Positions 4,210 to 32,000 of a DNA stretch of 32,000 nt are shown in pieces. A model generated the notes under the pieces. It did not search any database and was not told the DNA's origin. It saw nothing but the letters and a program-made list of their open reading frames with translations. The DNA is taken from NCBI GenBank assembly GCA_002688505.1, contig CP024013.1:233548-265547 (forward strand), read 5' to 3'. Source of the DNA: Candidatus Saccharimonadota bacterium (GTDB taxonomy: Bacteria; Pseudomonadota; Gammaproteobacteria; Enterobacterales; Enterobacteriaceae). A program made the position numbers and the translations under genes. The stretch's first letter is position 1. Every line of letters begins with the position of its first letter.

Positions 4210-6615
4210 ATGTTATTTAATAATTCTTATAATTCTTCTAATATTAAAGTTTTAAAAGGTTTAGATGCAGTTAGAAAACGTCCTGGTATGTATATTGGTG
4301 ATACAGATGATGGTACTGGATTGCATCATATGGTTTTTGAAGTTATAGATAATTCTATAGATGAATCTTTATCTGGTTTTTGTAAAAATATTTTTGTTAA
4401 AATATATAAAGATAATTCTATTTCTGTTTTAGATGATGGCAGAGGTATACCAGTAGATATACATAAAGATGAAAATATTTCTGCAGCTGAATTAATAATG
4501 ACAGTATTACATGCTGGTGGGAAATTTGATAATAATTCTTATAAAATTTCTGGTGGTTTACATGGTGTTGGTGTTTCTGTAGTTAATGCTCTTTCAGAGA
4601 AATTAATATTAAAGGTTTATAGAAATAAAAAAATTTTTTATCAAGAATATAATTATGGGGTTCCTTTATCAAAATTATATATAATAGGTAATACAATTTA
4701 TAATGGAACTTATATAAGATTTTGGCCTGATAAAAGTATTTTTAAAAATTGTATAAAATTTAAATATTCTATTTTATTTAAAAGATTAAATGAATTATCA
4801 TTTTTAAATAATGGTTTGAATATAAGTTTAGTAGATAAAAGAAATAATAAATCTTTTTTGTTTAATAATAAAGGAGGTTTAAAATCATTTTTAAATTATA
4901 TAATAGATAATAAAGTTGTTATAAATAATAAAAAATTTTATTTTTATTATATTAAAGATAATATGTCATTGGAAGTATCTAGTTGTTGATTAGATAATTC
5001 AAATTGTTCTATTTTATGTTTTACTAATAATATTCCTCAAATAGATGGAGGAACTCATTTAATAGGTTTTAAATCTGCTATAACTCGTACTATAAATTTT
5101 TACATTAATAATGAATTTTTAAAAAAAAAAAATAAATTAAATGTTATAGGAAGAGATACTCAAGAAGGCTTATATGCTATAATTTCTATTAAATTTTTTA
5201 ATCCTAAGTTTTCTTCTCAAACAAAAGATAAATTAATTTCTTCTGAAATTAAAAGTTTTGTTGAATCTTTGGTTATAAAAAATTTGTATGATTTTTTATT
5301 AGAAAATCCTAATGATGCTAAATTAATAATTAATAAAATAATTAATTCTTATAAGATTAGAGAATCTATTAAAAAATTTAGAGAAATATCCAAAAAAAAA
5401 TCTAATTTAGATTTATTAAATATTTCTAATAAGTTAGCAGATTGTCAGGAAAAAAATCCTTTATATTCTGAAATTTTTTTAGTTGAAGGTGATTCTGCAG
5501 GAGGTTCAGCTAAACAAGGTAGAAATAGATTAAATCAAGCAGTATTGCCTTTAAAAGGTAAAATTTTAAATGTAGAAAAAACTAATTTAGATAAAATATT
5601 ATCTTCAAATGAAATAAATATTTTAATTTCTGTTTTAGGTTGTGGTATAGATAATAATGATTTTAATATAAATAAATTAAGATATAATAAAATTATTATT
5701 ATGACTGATGCTGATGTTGATGGAGCACATATTCGTACTTTATTATTAACATTTTTTTATAGATATATGAAACAATTAATAATTAATGGAAATTTATATA
5801 TTGCTAAACCTCCGTTATATAGAATACAAGATAAAAAAAATATATTATATGTTAATAATGAAAAAGATTTATTAAAAAATAAAATTTTATTTATTTTTAA
5901 TAATATTAACATTTACAAAAAAAAAAATTTTATTTTATTAAAATCTAAATATTTAATTAAATTAGTTTTAATTTATATTAAATTTTTTAAAAATTTTAAT
6001 AATTATAAATATAAATTTATAGATTTTTTATTGAATAAATTAATATTTTTTAAGCTTTTAAATATAAAAAATATAAATAAATATAATATTTGGTTAGATA
6101 GTTTTTTGTTTTATTTAAATGATAATAATTTAAATATAAAAGTAAATTGTGATTTAATATTAAAAGATGATGTTTTTATAGGTTTTGATTTTAAAATTTT
6201 TAGTGGTTTTTATAGTGAAAATATTATTTTAAAAAAAAAATTTTTTAATAAATATTATATTAAAATTATTAATTTATGTAAAAATTTATATTTTTTTAAA
6301 AGTTATAATAAATTTTATGTTTTATTAAATAATAAAAAATATTATTTTAATAATATATTAAATTTGATAAATTTCGTTTTAAAAATTAAGAGTAATAATA
6401 TATATATTCAACGTTATAAAGGTTTAGGTGAAATGAATCCAGATCAGTTATGAAATACTACTATGAATCCAAAAAATAGATTTTTAATAAAAATTAATTT
6501 ATCTAATTTAGAAACTTCTGATGTTTTATTTAAAATTTTAATGGGTGATAATGTAAAATTAAGAAAATCTTTTATTAAAAAATATTCTAATAAATTTAAT
6601 AATAAAAATATTTAA
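4210..6615 (+). CDS. gyrB: DNA gyrase subunit B (801 aa, two in-frame TGA=Trp)
   Basis: [44 protein letters not shown] is near-identical to E. coli GyrB. The TGA at 4987-4989 aligns with the W in QWNDGF...[14 protein letters not shown]. The TGA at 6451-6453 aligns with the W in GLGEMNPEQLWETTM. Track ORFs 4210..4989 and 5269..6453 share one frame. A low-complexity stretch (about 5830-6400) occupies the position of the enterobacterial GyrB insertion domain. Confidence 0.95.
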
Positions 6616-24446: not shown

Positions 24447-26248
<1,802 letters not shown>

Positions 26249-26342
26249 TTTAAAAAAATTTAAAATAATTTTATAATATATATTATAATATAATAATTAA
26301 TTTTTATTATTAAAATTTTAATAATTATAATGAAAAAATATT

Positions 26343-28016
26343 ATGCGTACACATTATTGTAATTCACTATCTTATAAAGATATTAATAAAAATGTTAAAT
26401 TATGTGGTTGAGTACAAGATATACGTTTATTAAAAAGTATAATTTTTATAGATCTTAAGGATTGTAGTGGTAATTTACAATTAATAATTTTAAGTGAAAA
26501 TATAAAATTATGAAATTTATCTAAAAGTTTAACTCATCAATCGTGTATAAAAGTTAATGGTATAGTAAAAAAAAAAAATAATAATAAAATTGAGATTTTA
26601 GTTAATAAATTAATTGTTTTTAATTATTCTAAATTATTACCATTAGATATATTTATTAAAAATTCTGAAAAGATAAAATTTAAATATCGTTATTTAGATT
26701 TTAGAAACAAAAAAGTTTTTAAAATATTTAAGATAAGATCAAAAGTTAAAAATATTATATATAATTATTTTGAAAAAAGAAATTTTTTAAATATAGAAAC
26801 TCCTTTTTTAAATAAATCATTTTTTGAAGGTTCTAGAGATTTTTTAGTACCTAGTAGATTAGGTATTGGAAAAAATTATTCTTTACCTCAATCTCCTCAA
26901 ATTTTTAAACAATTATTAATGATTGGTGGTATAGATAAATATTATCAAATAGTAAAATGTTTTAGAGATGAAGATTTAAGATCTGATAGGCAACCTGAAT
27001 TTACTCAATTAGATTTAGAATTATCTTTTGTTAATTTTAATTTTATTAAAAATTTAATAGATAAGTTAATTAATAAAATTTGATTTAATATTTTAGGTAT
27101 TAATTTATGTAAAGAAATTAAAGTTATTAAATATAGTAAATGTTTAGTTAATTATTCTACTGATAAACCTGATTTAAGAAATCCTATAAAATTTGAAAAA
27201 AATATATATAATTTTTTAGTTAATAATAAAATTTTATTTAAAAATTCTAATTATACAATATTATCAATTTTATTAATTAATAAAGATTTAAAATTTGATT
27301 TAAATGATTTTATTTTATTTTTATCTAATAAAAATATATATAATATTATATTTTTAAAAGTTTATAATTTTGAAAATAATAAATTTATTTATAAGTGATC
27401 TTATAATTATTGAAAGTTAGATGATAATTTAACTCAAAAATTATTATTTTTTTTAAAATCTCCTATTAATTGTGTATATTTTATATTTATAGGTAAATTA
27501 TTGGTATATTCTTATTTATTAAAAATAAGAAATTTTTTTTGTGATTATTTTAAATTATTTAATAAAAATAAATTTATTCCTATATGAATTAAAGATTTTC
27601 CTATGTTTTATTATGATAAACATAATAAAATTAATTCTTTTCATCATCTTTTTACTAAACCTAAAATATTAGATATAAAAGAGTTAAAAATTTGTAATGA
27701 TTATACTAAATTATTAGCAAATTCATATGATTTAGTAATTAATGGATTTGAAATAGGCAGTGGTTCTGAAAGAATTAATAATTATATTATACAAAAAGAA
27801 ATTTTTAATATATTAAAAATTAATAAAAATATTATTTATAAAGATTATGGATTTTTTTTAAATTCTTTAAAATATGGAACTCCACCACATATTGGAATTG
27901 CACTTGGATTAGATCGTATTATTATGTTACTAACTAAAAGAAATAATATTAGGGAAGTAATTGCTTTTCCTAAATCTACATCTGGTAAATGTTTTGTTAC
28001 TAATGCTCCAGATTAA
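26343..28016 (+). CDS. aspS: Aspartyl-tRNA synthetase (557 aa, about 7 in-frame TGA)
   Basis: MRTHYCNSL...VKLCGWVQDIR.L...IFIDLKDCSGNLQL, KYRYLDFRN, LNIETPFLNKS..EGSRDFLVPSR, YSLPQSPQIFKQLLMIGGIDKYYQIVKCFRDEDLRSDRQPEFTQLDLELSF, STDKPDLRNP, IWIKDFPMF, YDLVINGFEIGSGSERI and LKYGTPPHIGIALGLDRIIMLLT...NIREVIAFPK are colinear with E. coli AspS. Track ORF 27603..28016 is only the C-terminus. Confidence 0.95.
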
Positions 28017-28025
28017 TAATATTTT

Positions 28026-28511
28026 ATGAAAATAAGAATAATTGGTATAGATCCTGGTACTTATTGTACAGGATATAGTATTTTAGAATTTAACAATTTA
28101 AATAAATTAAATAGAAAGATATTTTTTATTTCTAGTGGTTGTATTAAAAGTAATTCGAAAATTTTTTCTTTAAGATTAAATAAAATTTATAGATCTATAT
28201 TAAATATATTATTTATATTTAAACCTTTTGTGTTAGCTATTGAAAAAACTTTTTTATTTAATAATTTAAATTCTAGTTTTAAATTAAATCAGGTTAATGC
28301 AGTTATAACTTTAGCTGCTGTCAGAAATTTTATTCCTATTTATGAATATAATATTAATAAAATAAAAAATTCTATTTTTAAAAGAACTAATATAAATAAA
28401 AAATATATTAATTTATTTTTCAAAGATTTTTTTAATATTAATAAAGATATAGATTTAAATATAACAGATTCTATAGCAGTTGCTATGTGTCATATATTTT
28501 TAAATTATTAA
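28026..28511 (+). CDS. ruvC: Holliday junction resolvase RuvC (161 aa)
   Basis: MKIRIIGIDPGTYCTGYSIL, SSGCIK, FSLRLNKIY, LAIEKTF, FKLNQVNAVITLAAV...IPIYEY and DSIAVAMCH align with E. coli ILGIDPGSRVTGYGVI, GSGCIR, LPSRLKLIY, FAIEQVF, LKLGQARGVAIVAAV..LPVFEY and DALAIAITHCH. By my alignment the residue matching E. coli D138 appears to be Asn; D7, E66 and D141 are conserved. Confidence 0.85.
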   Translation: MKIRIIGIDPGTYCTGYSILEFNNLNKLNRKIFFISSGCIKSNSKIFSLRLNKIYRSILNILFIFKPFVLAIEKTFLFNNLNSSFKLNQVNAVITLAAVRNFIPIYEYNINKIKNSIFKRTNINKKYINLFFKDFFNINKDIDLNITDSIAVAMCHIFLNY

Positions 28512-28599
28512 TTTTTAAATATTTTTAAAAAATATTTGATTTAAATTTTATATATGATAATCTATTTATATATTATATTTTATTTTAAAGGTAATTTTG

Positions 28600-28812
28600 A
28601 TGTCTACAAGAGTAAAAGGTAATGTTAAATGGTTTAATGAATCTAAAGGTTTTGGATTTATTACACCAGTTAATGGTGATAAAGATGTTTTTGTTCATTT
28701 TTCAGCTATTCAAAGTAGTGGATTTAAAACTTTAACTGAAGGTCAATCTGTTGAATTTGAAATTACTAATGGAGCTAAAGGTCCTTCTGCTACAAATGTA
28801 GTTCCTTTATAA
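28600..28812 (+). CDS. cspE: Cold-shock-domain protein of the CspC/CspE type (70 aa)
   Basis: [70 protein letters not shown] is near-identical to E. coli CspC/CspE (...[58 protein letters not shown]). Trp is encoded by TGG here. I prefer ATG at 28600 to the track's TTG at 28597. An AAAGG SD-like motif lies about 9 nt upstream. The assignment to C versus E is uncertain. Confidence 0.9.
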
Positions 28813-28880
28813 AATTAATATATAATTAATTTTATATAATTTAAAGTTTTTTAAATTATATTTTAAATTTTATTTAATTA

Positions 28881-28949
28881 GTGAATTATTTAAATATAAT
28901 AAATAACTTAAGTTTTTTAAATTTAATTATATATATTTAAATAATTCAC
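28881..28949. repeat. 18-bp-stem inverted repeat downstream of the csp gene (possible terminator or RNA structure)
   Basis: GTGAATTATTTAAATATA (28881-28898) and TATATTTAAATAATTCAC (28932-28949) are exact reverse complements, separated by 33 nt. Confidence 0.45.
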
Positions 28950-29101
28950 ATTTTATATATTTTATATAAGTTTAAAATTTTATTTATTAATAATATTTCT
29001 TTCTTTTTATTATTTAATAAAATTAATTTTTGTATTTAATATTATTTATTTTAAAAAATAAATTAAATAAAAACAATAAATCTTAAAATAATATTATAAT
29101 T

Positions 29102-29177
29102 TTATATATTATAATGTAACATATAATATAAATATATATATATATATTTATATTATATGTTACATTATAATATATAA
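29102..29177. repeat. Perfect 76-bp palindrome (38-bp arms, no spacer)
   Basis: I checked it base by base around the centre between 29139 and 29140. All 38 pairs are complementary, including the G/C-containing GTAAC (29116-29120) and GTTAC (29159-29163). The symmetry breaks at the pair 29101/29178. Confidence 0.9.
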
Positions 29178-29759
29178 TCAAAAAAGAAAAAATTAGACTG
29201 AAATTTATTTAAATCTCTATTAAAAAATAAAAAATTATTAAATATTTTAATATTTTCTATTCCTTCTAGTGGTTTATTTCAATATCTAATTGTTACATTA
29301 CCTTTTTTAACTAAAATAATTAATTTAAAATCTAATTATTCTTATTCTATATTAAATTTTTTTTGTACTTTTTTTTCTTCTATTGTTGGATTTTTATTAT
29401 ATAGTAGTTATATTTTTAATTTAATTAAAAATTATACTTTTATAATATGCTCTATATTATTATCAATTTTAATATTTAGTAAAAATTTTTTTTTACTTCT
29501 AATTATTAATTCAATATGTTTTGGTTTTTTAGCAGGTCATATAATTTGTATGCAAATAGAAATAAATAAATTTTCTTCATATTTTAATTTAGGAAAATAT
29601 ACAATTATACGTAATTCTATATCAAGTCTTTCTAAAATTTTATTTTCTTTATTATCTGTTTATTTTATAAAAAATTTTTCTTTATCATTAGTTTATATAT
29701 TTGGTTCTGGAATTTTATTTTTATTTCAAATTATATATTTTTTATTTAATTATTTATAA
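29178..29759 (+). pseudogene. 3' half of an MFS-like transporter gene (open frame with no start codon; about 6 TM segments)
   Basis: The frame is open from 29178 to TAA at 29757-29759. It reads ...LDWNLFKSLLKNKKLLNILIFSIPSSGLFQYLIVTLPFL...FGFLAGHIICMQIE...GSGILFLFQIIYFLFNYL*. The first 24 codons after LD are the repeat shared with the 5' half at 31901..31972. The first in-frame ATG is only at 29550 (track ORF 29550..29759). Confidence 0.6.
29190..29267 (+). repeat. Left copy of a perfect 78-bp direct repeat
   Basis: AAATTAGACTGAAATTTATTTAAATCTCTATTAAAAAATAAAAAATTATTAAATATTTTAATATTTTCTATTCCTTCT is identical to 31895..31972 (offset 2705 bp). Confidence 0.95.
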
Positions 29760-29843
29760 ATTTTATAAATTTTATTTTTATTAAAAATTTTATTACAAAC
29801 ATTATTATTTATATTTAAATACTTTAGTTCAGAAATAAAATTC

Positions 29844-29888
29844 GAAATTAATTAATTTTTAATATATATTTAAAAATTAATTAATTTC
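29844..29888. repeat. 19-bp-arm inverted repeat between the MFS 3' half and the 3' end of repA
   Basis: GAAATTAATTAATTTTTAA (29844-29862) and TTAAAAATTAATTAATTTC (29870-29888) are exact reverse complements, with a 7-nt loop. Confidence 0.7.
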
Positions 29889-30045
29889 TTAAAATTTTTA
29901 AATGAAAAATATATTAAAATTATAAGATAGTAAATAAAAAACAAAAAATTTTTACTAAAATATAAATATTTACATATAATATTATAACATAATTTTAATT
30001 AAAAAAAAGAATACCTCAAAAATTTAAAATTACTTTTAATAATTA

Positions 30046-31056
30046 TTAAAATAATAAAATTTTTTTACCTCTCTTTAATAAATTCTTATAATACATTTCA
30101 GAATTCTTAATTAATTCAGGATTCTCTTTTTTAAACTTTTTCTCTAAAAAAATTATTTTATAAGGCATTTGGGTTAAACTTCAATTAATAAATTTACAAT
30201 ACCAAAATTTTGATTTAGCTTTATTATTATTATTATTAATTAAAGAAGAAACAATCTTACTAGAATTAAAATTTTTATTATAACTAATATTTTTATTAAA
30301 AGATCTAAAAATATTTTTTGAATATTTATTTAAATTTTTACAATTACCATATAACTTAATATTTAATTTTATTTTATCTATAAGTTTATTTCCTAAAATC
30401 AATTTTCTTTCTTTAATCAATAAACATCTTAAAGATTTTTTTCTTAATAAATCAATACCTATAACTCTCATTTTAAGTAAATGTTTATTATTAAAATATA
30501 ACAAATTAGAAGTAAAATTATTATTTAATACTCATTTTTCATATTTATTTAAATAAAACCTTAACTCACCAACAGTAATATTTCTTGAAGTAAAAAATTT
30601 TTTAGTTAATCAAATACGTAAAGGTTTATTATGACCTGTATCAGGATTTTTACCTCTTAATACTATTATATATTTTAATTTTTCTAATACATGTAATGCA
30701 TTTAAAGGAGGATCATAAGATTTTCTTCCGTTACTATAAATATGTAACATATTCATTGAATGTGATATAATCTCAAATGGAGCTTTTATCTCAAATATAT
30801 AATTACTATATAAAGTGTAATTACAATATATAAGTAATGTACTAGATAAAACTGTAAGAGATTCACATAATTCTGATCTTACATGAATACGCATATTTAA
30901 TTTTCTACGTAATTTAATAAGATCATAATTATAGTGTCAATTATGTTTACTAATTTTATCAATTAATTTAGTTGTTATACCTCTAGGAATATTACATATA
31001 ATCTTAGGGGTATATCTTCTATGTATTTTATTAATTTTACTTTTTCTTAATAACAT
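30046..31056 (-). CDS. repA: Plasmid replication initiator, IncFII RepA-like (336 aa, four in-frame TGA)
   Basis: Track ORFs 30610..30894 and 30181..30504 share a frame with ATG at comp 31054-31056 and join through TGA. The product is MLLRKSKINKIHRRYTPK...KLIDKISKHNWHYNYDLIKLRRKLNMRIHVRSELCESL...SYDPPLNALHVLEKLKYIIVLRGKNPDTGHNKPLRIWLTKKFFTS.... From memory it parallels R1/R100 RepA (KLMEKAVGFTSRFDFAIHV...LRRRMPPVLRRRAIDAL...SITRATRALTFLSELGLITYQTEYDPLIGCYIPTDITFTSALF). I did not run a search, so the family call is moderate. Confidence 0.55.
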
Positions 31057-31270
31057 TTTTATTTTATTTATTTATAATTTATTAAAATTATTTAATTTAT
31101 TTAATTTATTATTTAATATTTTATTATTAAAAAATAAAATTTTATATTTTCATAATCTACATATTATAACTAAAAATAAAAATTTTTATAAAATTATTTT
31201 AAATAAAAATTTAATATAATTAATTTTTATATTAATATTACATAAATTAAAAATATAATATATTAAAACT

Positions 31271-32000
31271 ATGATTAACAAATTAATAAAAAATAAAAAT
31301 ATTAATTACTATATTACTAATATAATAGTAGCTTCAATAGAATGTGTACAAAATACAATTTTAGTTTGATTAGTATTTAATTATACAAATAATAATTTAT
31401 ATTCTATTAGTTTAATAAATTTTGCAAATTATTTTCCTATGGTAATATCAATATTTACATTTATTTCAATAGCAGACAAAATTAATCCTTTATATCAATA
31501 TTATATAAATAATTTATTTTCTTTAATAATATCATTTTTAATGTTCTTATTATTTTTAATAAAACCAAGAATAAAAATATTTTTAATAATAATATTTATA
31601 TTACAAATAAGTTTCTCATTTATTAGAACATTAAATAAAACTAATTTTAATAAAATTACTAAAATTTTATTTAAAAAAAGTTCTATAGACAAAACATTTA
31701 AAATGTTGCTTTCTTTAATACAAATTTCACAGACTGTAGGTAATATTATAGGTAGTTTATTTATAGCACAAAATATACCTTTATTTGGTTTTATATTTAC
31801 ATTTTTTATGTATAGCATTAGTTTATTTTTATCATATTTTTTATTAAAAAAATATAAAAACATTTTCATTAATAAAAATAAAAAAAATAAAATTAAATTA
31901 GACTGAAATTTATTTAAATCTCTATTAAAAAATAAAAAATTATTAAATATTTTAATATTTTCTATTCCTTCTCAAAAAAAAAAAATTATTGAAAAAAAAA
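31271..32000 (+). CDS. 5' half of the MFS-like transporter gene; after the 78-bp repeat it runs into a Lys-rich tail and off the window
   Basis: ATG at 31271. The product is MINKLIKNKNINYYITNIIVASIECVQNTILVWLVFNYT...PMVISIFTFISIADKINP...IAQNIPLFGFIFTFFMYSISLFLSYFLLKKY...KLDWNLFKSLLKNKKLLNILIFSIPS, about 6 TM segments then a central loop. After 31972 it reads QKKKIIEKK instead of the continuation found at 29268. The MFS assignment rests on topology and loose similarity to EntS/MFS_3-type transporters. Confidence 0.55.
31895..31972 (+). repeat. Right copy of the perfect 78-bp direct repeat
   Basis: Identical to 29190..29267. The flanks diverge on both sides (the preceding base is T versus A; the following base is C versus A). 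Confidence 0.95.

Follow-up and report, generated by a model that had tools for sequence, protein, structure and literature searches.

What a long perfect palindrome is doing between a conserved chromosomal gene and a stretch of plasmid-like DNA is the question raised by this locus. The window, by which is meant the whole stretch of 32,000 nt that was analysed, comes from the beetle symbiont Candidatus Stammera capleta (G+C 14.8%). Its genes are intact only when UGA is read as tryptophan (code 4), an assignment published for Stammera capleta (PMC8629427). They are arranged in the order mnmE-yidC-rnpA-dnaA-dnaN-gyrB ... argS-aspS-ruvC-csp, after which comes the palindrome. The original prediction assigned it to an integration or misjoin junction with the plasmid-like DNA, and its candidates included a resolution site, a cruciform origin, a replicated hairpin end and a library artefact. 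The reading put forward here, with considerable confidence and from the comparison of sequences, is that the Stammera chromosome is linear and that the palindrome represents the hairpin telomere at its right end, the tel site of a phage-type protelomerase. The features concerned are as follows.

26343-28016, aspS (code 4), upstream of csp
28026-28511, ruvC, upstream of csp
28600-28812, plus strand, csp, cold-shock protein of 70 aa, last gene of the chromosome arm (open reading frame and homology)
28813-29101, plus strand, putative subtelomeric spacer, AT-rich and non-coding, 289 nt from the csp stop codon to the palindrome, not conserved among strains
29102-29177, no strand, perfect 76-bp palindrome (symmetry, shuffles, same feature at contig or record ends of relatives)
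29115-29139, plus strand, putative 25-nt telomere half-site TGTAACATATAATATAAATATATAT, reaching the dyad (conservation; predicted protelomerase recognition half-site)
29137-29142, no strand, central TATATA, 6 bp about the dyad (predicted hairpin turn and, by analogy with TelK and TelN, predicted interval of staggered cleavage)
29140-29164, plus strand, mirror copy of the half-site, ATATATATTTATATTATATGTTACA (symmetry)
29178-29189, no strand, 12 nt TCAAAAAAGAAA separating the palindrome from the plasmid repeat, not a mirror of 29090-29101
29190-31972, no strand, circular plasmid of 2705 bp given in linear form, its ends overlapping by 78 nt (repeat and plasmid identity), not telomere

Comparison of the two arms (29102-29139 and 29140-29177, 38 nt each) bore out the geometry given in the original prediction. 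They are 100% complementary about a dyad at 29139/29140, with a spacer of 0 nt and 0 mismatches, and the symmetry covers GTAAC...GTTAC too. The runner-up among spacer-less palindromes of the 32-kb window has arms of 15 nt. In 200 shuffles of the window that preserved dinucleotides the longest arm had a mean of 10.7 nt and a maximum of 17, and 100 shuffled sequences of 32 kb, matched in composition to the AT-rich spacer nearby, gave a mean of 13.3 and again a maximum of 17. Since the observed arms measure 38 nt, AT-richness cannot account for the palindrome, as had been argued at the outset. Perfect dyad symmetry without a spacer is what is expected of a protelomerase target of the N15 telRL type. 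The alternating TA centre can be read directly at 29137-29142 and is fixed at 25 nt from TGTAAC in the window and in nine relatives that carry the same core. TelK and TelN cleave their targets with a stagger of 6 bp, and the cleavage positions about the present dyad would be placed by analogy with these enzymes. Rfam and tRNA scans of the window returned four tRNAs only, with no match at the palindrome.

The half-site and its neighbouring gene in related chromosomes

A search for the palindrome or its half-site elsewhere and in related strains, proposed with the original prediction, proved informative. Eight other Stammera chromosomes were found by a RuvC-based search and three by protein look-ups, and all 11 have a palindrome at the equivalent place, mostly downstream of csp. 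The 25-nt half-site of the window is common to nine of the 11 and consists of TGTAACATAT[T/A]ATATAAATATATA and a central TA or AA, always 25 nt from the dyad; the other two have a diverged core at the same place. Mean pairwise identity is 91% in the core compared with 50% in the adjacent 30-nt flank (16 half-sites from 10 strains). Variants of the core that are specific to one strain match between its two ends, for example TGTCAC at both ends of CP043975.1, and among the relatives both ends carry the 25-nt core wherever both are visible (L002, L003, L005, L006, L009, L026). There was no other copy of the core in the window or in the 20-kb loci, and a scan of three small plasmid records did not reveal one either.

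In 11 of 11 relatives the gene next to the palindrome on its inner side encodes a protelomerase homologue of ~505 aa, lies 50-100 nt from the dyad and points inward. The Stammera protein matches the phiKO2 TelK structure (PDB 2v6e) with E=9e-88 over residues 42-502 and is assigned above threshold to the Pfam families TelK_muzzle and TelK_stirrup (PF20849, PF20818), and PF16684 is precomputed for most of the Stammera homologues. It aligns over its full length with TelN, TelK and the PY54 Tel at 29-34% identity, without their C-terminal tail of ~120 aa. Of 17 Stammera homologues, 16 retain all five catalytic residues, namely R275, K300, R383, H416 and the nucleophile Y425 (TelK numbering); P0014 of CP144771.1 has K/K/I/Y/Q instead and has lost four of the five. 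These homologues are found on contigs of 212-314 kb, and the six contigs checked were all Stammera chromosomes. Judged by such matches the enzyme clearly belongs to the N15/phiKO2 phage type.

Several strains depart from this pattern in detail. The degenerate homologue of CP144771.1 (L024 4001-5554) occurs in a strain of 313 kb that nevertheless has the longest fold-back, with arms of 115 nt; an intact second copy may lie in the unassembled other end of that chromosome. The gene of CP144810.1 is split at an A-run into ORFs of 217 aa and 280 aa (L006 11104-12620), through either a frameshift or an assembly error. A second, diverged type of protelomerase (P0015, P0021), with 44-49% identity and with GAAK and NLCH motifs, is accompanied in CP144819.1 by a diverged telomere core, GTGTTACATAATAATACATTATATATAT (4322-4463 of locus L035), a pairing that suggests co-evolution of enzyme and site. 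For the strain of the window itself, the tel gene is expected at the opposite end of the chromosome, beyond the window, and a protelomerase search of the protein collection gave no member from run SRR6147586.

The arrangement closely follows that of the phages N15, phiKO2 and PY54. Their enzymes (TelN, TelK and Tel) are homologous to that of Stammera over the N-terminal, muzzle, catalytic and stirrup regions and have the same catalytic pentad, and in each phage the protelomerase gene is closely preceded, at a distance of 119-165 nt, by a spacer-less palindrome of ~50 bp in whose centre pyrimidines and purines alternate. The phiKO2 telRL is annotated as 50 bp, which matches the 2 x 25 of Stammera. 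Counted from the dyad, TATA (+4 to +7) and GT (+20/21) occupy the same positions in the Stammera half-site as in the phage sites, GTTAC occurs at +20 to +24 as in PY54, and the diverged type-2 Stammera site has TATAATG at +4 to +10 exactly as in N15. These in-register matches, which occur in AT-rich DNA, suggest kinship with the phage tel sites. The two systems nevertheless differ in several respects. Protein identity is only 29-34% and the Stammera enzyme is shorter at its C-terminus; the Stammera site is almost pure A/T with a (TA)n or AATT centre, whereas the phage centre is CGCGCG; the site lies 50-100 nt from the start codon in Stammera as against 140-190 nt in the phages; and what would be capped is a cellular chromosome of ~250 kb rather than a prophage of 46-52 kb.

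The recurrence of the feature also bears on a purely technical origin, in which chimeric inverted reads, read-through of hairpin adapters or an assembler error would have created the palindrome. Suspicion is justified to the extent that the arm length equals (k-1)/2 for k=77 and that the record has other assembler signatures (the 78-nt overlap and a run of 79 T), but a dyad at a fixed 25 nt from TGTAAC recurs in read sets that are independent of one another and come from different years and assemblers (Logan k=31, MEGAHIT and the window record), in nine other strains and, with a diverged core, in two more, always beside the protelomerase gene. An artefact is effectively refuted by this recurrence and is scarcely credible.

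A replication origin in cruciform or hairpin form would likewise be a perfect AT-rich inverted repeat in intergenic DNA downstream of csp, as would a transcription terminator of that gene. The strand composition speaks against an origin. Both GC and AT skew switch sign at the palindrome in the terminus sense in four relatives, the G-rich leading strand converging from both sides, and in the five 2024 records checked, which begin at the GC-skew origin, the palindrome lies at 45-46% of the record length, opposite that origin. The neighbouring gene, moreover, encodes a protelomerase and not an initiator. A stem of 38 bp that is almost pure A/T, placed 290 nt past the stop codon and with no T-run logic, does not resemble a terminator, and either role is hardly conceivable. 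The position at the terminus is in keeping with work on the N15 tos/TelN cassette, for which, in the account of Cui et al. (2007) contained in PMC5862497, only placement at the terminus gave a healthy linear E. coli chromosome. From the list of candidates first drawn up, the resolution site and the replicated hairpin end are retained, while the cruciform origin is lost to the terminus-type skew and the pure library artefact to the finding of the same dyad in independent read sets and assemblers.

Sequence ends and chromosome topology

The way in which assembled sequences end at the palindrome was compared among records. An independent k=31 assembly of run SRR6147586, from the same strain as the window, contains a Logan contig (L001) that is 100% identical to the window over 25899-29154 (3256 nt); it runs from argS to 15 nt beyond the dyad and then stops, with no branch at 29101/29102. 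Logan contigs built with k=31 end 15-16 nt beyond the dyad, while others stop within the core, and in the strain of CP144782.1 the left-end contig (L022) starts inside the core and misses the dyad, so that contigs of this k-mer length cannot separate a hairpin from a circle. The 2024 records, which were assembled with MEGAHIT (k up to 141) from 150-nt reads, curated manually and set to begin at the GC-skew origin, have NNNNN exactly at the palindrome, where it joins two contig ends that each carry a fold-back of their own flank. The arms beside the NNNNN are 35 and 35 nt in CP144810.1 and 28 and 41 nt in CP144843.1, with end-specific variants outside the core. The fold-back arms of CP043989.1 (L026) and CP144819.1 (L035) measure 71 nt, equal to (141+1)/2, and those of CP144771.1 (L024) 115 nt, the right arm taking in the first 16 nt of the tel ORF.

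Wherever it can be seen in assembled sequence, the arms extend to the boundary of the contig or record (15-16, 38, 71 or 115 nt); at the level of assembled sequence, that is, these chromosomes end in an unbounded fold-back into their own flank. The underlying reads would then hold a fold-back without a limit of its own, the visible arm length reflecting assembler or curator. In the window three numbers fit a graph of k=77, namely the arm of 38 nt, which is (77-1)/2, the plasmid overlap of 78 nt and the T79 run in argS, and the length of the arm was probably set by the assembler and not by the sequence. The T79 run occupies 25490-25568 (poly-A in coding orientation), at a point where relatives encode a few consecutive lysines (KLKKKKKN), and it shifts the frame to leave two ORFs (24447-25391 and 25484-26248); it is probably an artefact of the k=77 graph assembler or else a slippery homopolymer. 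Reads that fold back at the centre of the palindrome had been taken in the original prediction as a sign of an assembly or library artefact; they are the expected mark of a genuine hairpin telomere and are no proof of an artefact. The recurring breaks of assemblies at this place would find their cause in a chromosome end that is a hairpin telomere.

Some records are written differently. CP043978.1 opens with the tel gene (position 40), and its last bases lie within the palindrome, in which CP043980.1 also ends. CP043975.1 passes through a palindrome of 50 bp and ends ~100 nt into the tel flank, and both this record and CP043973.1 continue across a single 50-bp palindrome, with the csp flank on one side and the tel flank on the other, in the manner of a circular molecule. 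Such records can be used to argue for a circular chromosome with the palindrome as a tel-like site in its interior, intact and bounded, of ~50-76 bp. This would be either a relic or an occasional target of a domesticated N15-type protelomerase, and assemblies would break there only because palindromes confuse de Bruijn graphs. In agreement with this, contigs of k=31 would be unable to cross a 50-bp palindrome anyway, and the genome authors describe complete single chromosomes. The degenerate tel gene of one strain (P0014 of CP144771.1) and the split gene of another (CP144810.1) also weigh against the telomere reading.

Against a circle, the fold-backs exceed the 25-nt core and mirror their own flank, with arms of 35-41 nt (L002, L006), 71 nt (L026, L035) and 115 nt (L024). 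A bounded site in a circle cannot yield fold-backs that are specific to the flank, which argues against circularity. MEGAHIT, at k up to 141 and with 150-nt reads, should cross a 50-bp palindrome, yet its contigs end there, and the closure of records via the shared core is the expected product of merging two fold-back ends by their overlap. An active protelomerase with its site would also be expected to linearise the molecule, as in the engineered E. coli of Cui et al. (2007) to which PMC5862497 refers. Both the internal site in a circle and the attribution of every break to graph confusion are considered improbable, and the Stammera chromosome, although deposited as circular, is probably linear in physical form.

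If the chromosome is linear with hairpin ends, the course of events can be proposed by analogy with the phage enzymes. Both DNA strands would be covalently joined at each chromosome end, and replication from an internal origin would pass round the hairpin turns, so that the ends become perfect inverted repeats, R-R' and L-L'. A TelK/TelN-like protelomerase would bind the two 25-nt half-sites (TGTAACATAT-ATATAAATATATA), make a cut in both strands, a few bases to each side of the dyad, and join each strand to its complement to give two hairpins. Sequencing reads would pass round the tip, and a de Bruijn assembler would continue for ~(k-1)/2 bases beyond the dyad, producing the right arm of 38 nt, while what follows 29177 (the 12 nt and then the plasmid) would be a different piece of sequence placed behind the chromosome end. 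The right arm (29140-29177) is very probably the complementary strand of 29102-29139 read round the hairpin tip and not additional genome, and the 76 bp are very probably equivalent to the replicated-telomere junction R-R', the predicted substrate of the Stammera protelomerase.

The adjacent plasmid

The 12-nt gap between the palindrome and the plasmid repeat was found as originally described, with the repeat beginning at 29190. The repeat is direct and exact (29190-29267 and 31895-31972, 78 nt) with an offset of 2705, and the unit that it delimits is 81-84% identical to separate circular plasmids of 2.6-2.75 kb from Stammera (CP144845.1, CP144784.1, CP145601.1 and CP043982.1). A gene for an MFS transporter is split by the linearisation, the N-terminal half running from 31271 and the C-terminal half to 29759, and circularising the unit restores one transporter gene with a weak match to Pfam MFS_1 (E=3e-7, 30.0 bits, below the gathering cut-off of 33.4). 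Another Stammera plasmid record retains an assembler overlap of 141 nt. The restored gene and the assembler-like overlap indicate that the 78-nt repeat represents the ends of a linearised circle. The 2.7-kb module is a circular plasmid in its own right, written behind the end of the chromosome, and is not an integration partner; it adjoins the palindrome because the chromosome sequence ends there.

The proposal that the palindrome belongs to a junction, as the entry point or recombination site of this plasmid, was natural given plasmid-derived sequence only 12 nt away and flanked by 78-nt direct repeats, and the Stammera authors do report plasmid integration in some strains. It did not survive the comparison with relatives, all 11 of which have the palindrome beside a protelomerase gene and no neighbouring plasmid. 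None of the three plasmid records scanned contains the telomere core, and L001 has no branch, so that a site common to plasmid and chromosome, as in an att-type junction, was not found there; the repeat, as noted, behaves like an assembler overlap. A real and well-covered junction into TCAAAAAAGAAA should produce a branch, and the unbranched same-strain k=31 contig therefore indicates that the sequence from 29178 onward is a separate piece. A plasmid junction is accordingly judged highly improbable. In another strain a 30-nt repeat common to both ends does interrupt the Logan contigs. The practical consequence is that the plasmid written beside the palindrome in the window record must not be read as an integration.

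The 12-nt TCAAAAAAGAAA is most likely a join or filler from the building of the record. Neither it nor the A-rich tail CAAAAAAAAAAAATTATTGAAAAAAAAA past the second repeat (31973-32000) has an exact match in any fetched locus, and BLAST of both against the 5.6-kb plasmid CP144844.1 gave low-complexity matches only. The filler has some likeness to the first ~33 nt of CP043978.1 (TAGATAATCAGAGAATAAAAGAAAAAAAG), which do not agree with the Logan contig from that run. The small plasmid also contains ORF336 (30046-31056, minus strand), whose region is the sole part in common with the larger Stammera plasmids of 8.7-9.6 kb (72-82% identity). It has no Pfam match and is a candidate for a replication protein of an undescribed family.

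Known hairpin-ended replicons and variation at the probable Stammera chromosome ends

Hairpin ends have been described for both engineered and natural bacterial chromosomes. E. coli carrying N15 tos and TelN near dif is reported, in what PMC5862497 relates of Cui et al. (2007), to be viable with a linear hairpin-capped chromosome. Stammera would share with it a TelN-type enzyme, a palindromic site at the terminus (defined in Stammera by skew) and an enterobacterial setting. The E. coli system is artificial, whereas that of Stammera, with linearity deduced from sequence records, would be natural, ancient and fixed throughout the clade. [quoted passage not shown] Like the proposed Stammera ends, these are covalently closed hairpins capping cellular replicons, but the telomere sequences of Borrelia and Agrobacterium are unrelated to those of Stammera. 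The enzymes ResT and TelA are smaller and are not known to have the muzzle and stirrup domains of TelK. 'Candidatus Phytoplasma mali', also small in genome, AT-rich and dependent on its host, has a linear chromosome with reported hairpin ends, according to the description in PMC2459194. It differs in belonging to another phylum and, by that description, in having large terminal inverted repeats.

It also seems fairly likely that all Stammera, as known from tortoise and hispine leaf beetles (~50 sequenced strains of 0.21-0.33 Mb), have naturally linear, hairpin-capped chromosomes maintained by a domesticated N15-type protelomerase, which would have co-evolved with an almost pure A/T tel site since the origin of the symbiosis. 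Were this correct, the topology of a well-studied model symbiont genome would change, together with dozens of GenBank records labelled circular or complete, in some of which the NNNNN would sit exactly at the telomeres. A phage protelomerase, once domesticated, would have served for tens of millions of years in the maintenance of a primary cellular chromosome, and the chromosomes would be among the smallest linear ones in bacteria and a natural counterpart of the engineered linear E. coli. They would have been missed because all public records are closed or gap-joined as a circle. As an idea only, an extremely reduced genome could in this way dispense with the resolution of chromosome dimers and with decatenation at the terminus. 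In the searchable literature no link of Stammera to a protelomerase, telomeres or a linear chromosome was found; the 2017 Cell and 2020 Current Biology papers may mention one.

The order of genes at the chromosome ends varies by strain (L003, L023, L024, L026 and L035). The neighbour of tel is gapA, in an arrangement shared with the strain of the window, csp (CP043989.1, CP144771.1) or ruvC (CP144819.1, SRR23946976), while in every terminal order no gene lies between tel and the palindrome, and tel is oriented inward. This variation looks like an exchange of segments between the two chromosome ends, and if all Stammera chromosomes are linear it would represent such exchanges. In the strain of CP043978.1 the subtelomere on the csp side and the beginning of tel, with its ATG, share a 30-nt inverted repeat (3' end of L033 and 5' end of L017), at which both k=31 contigs of that strain break.
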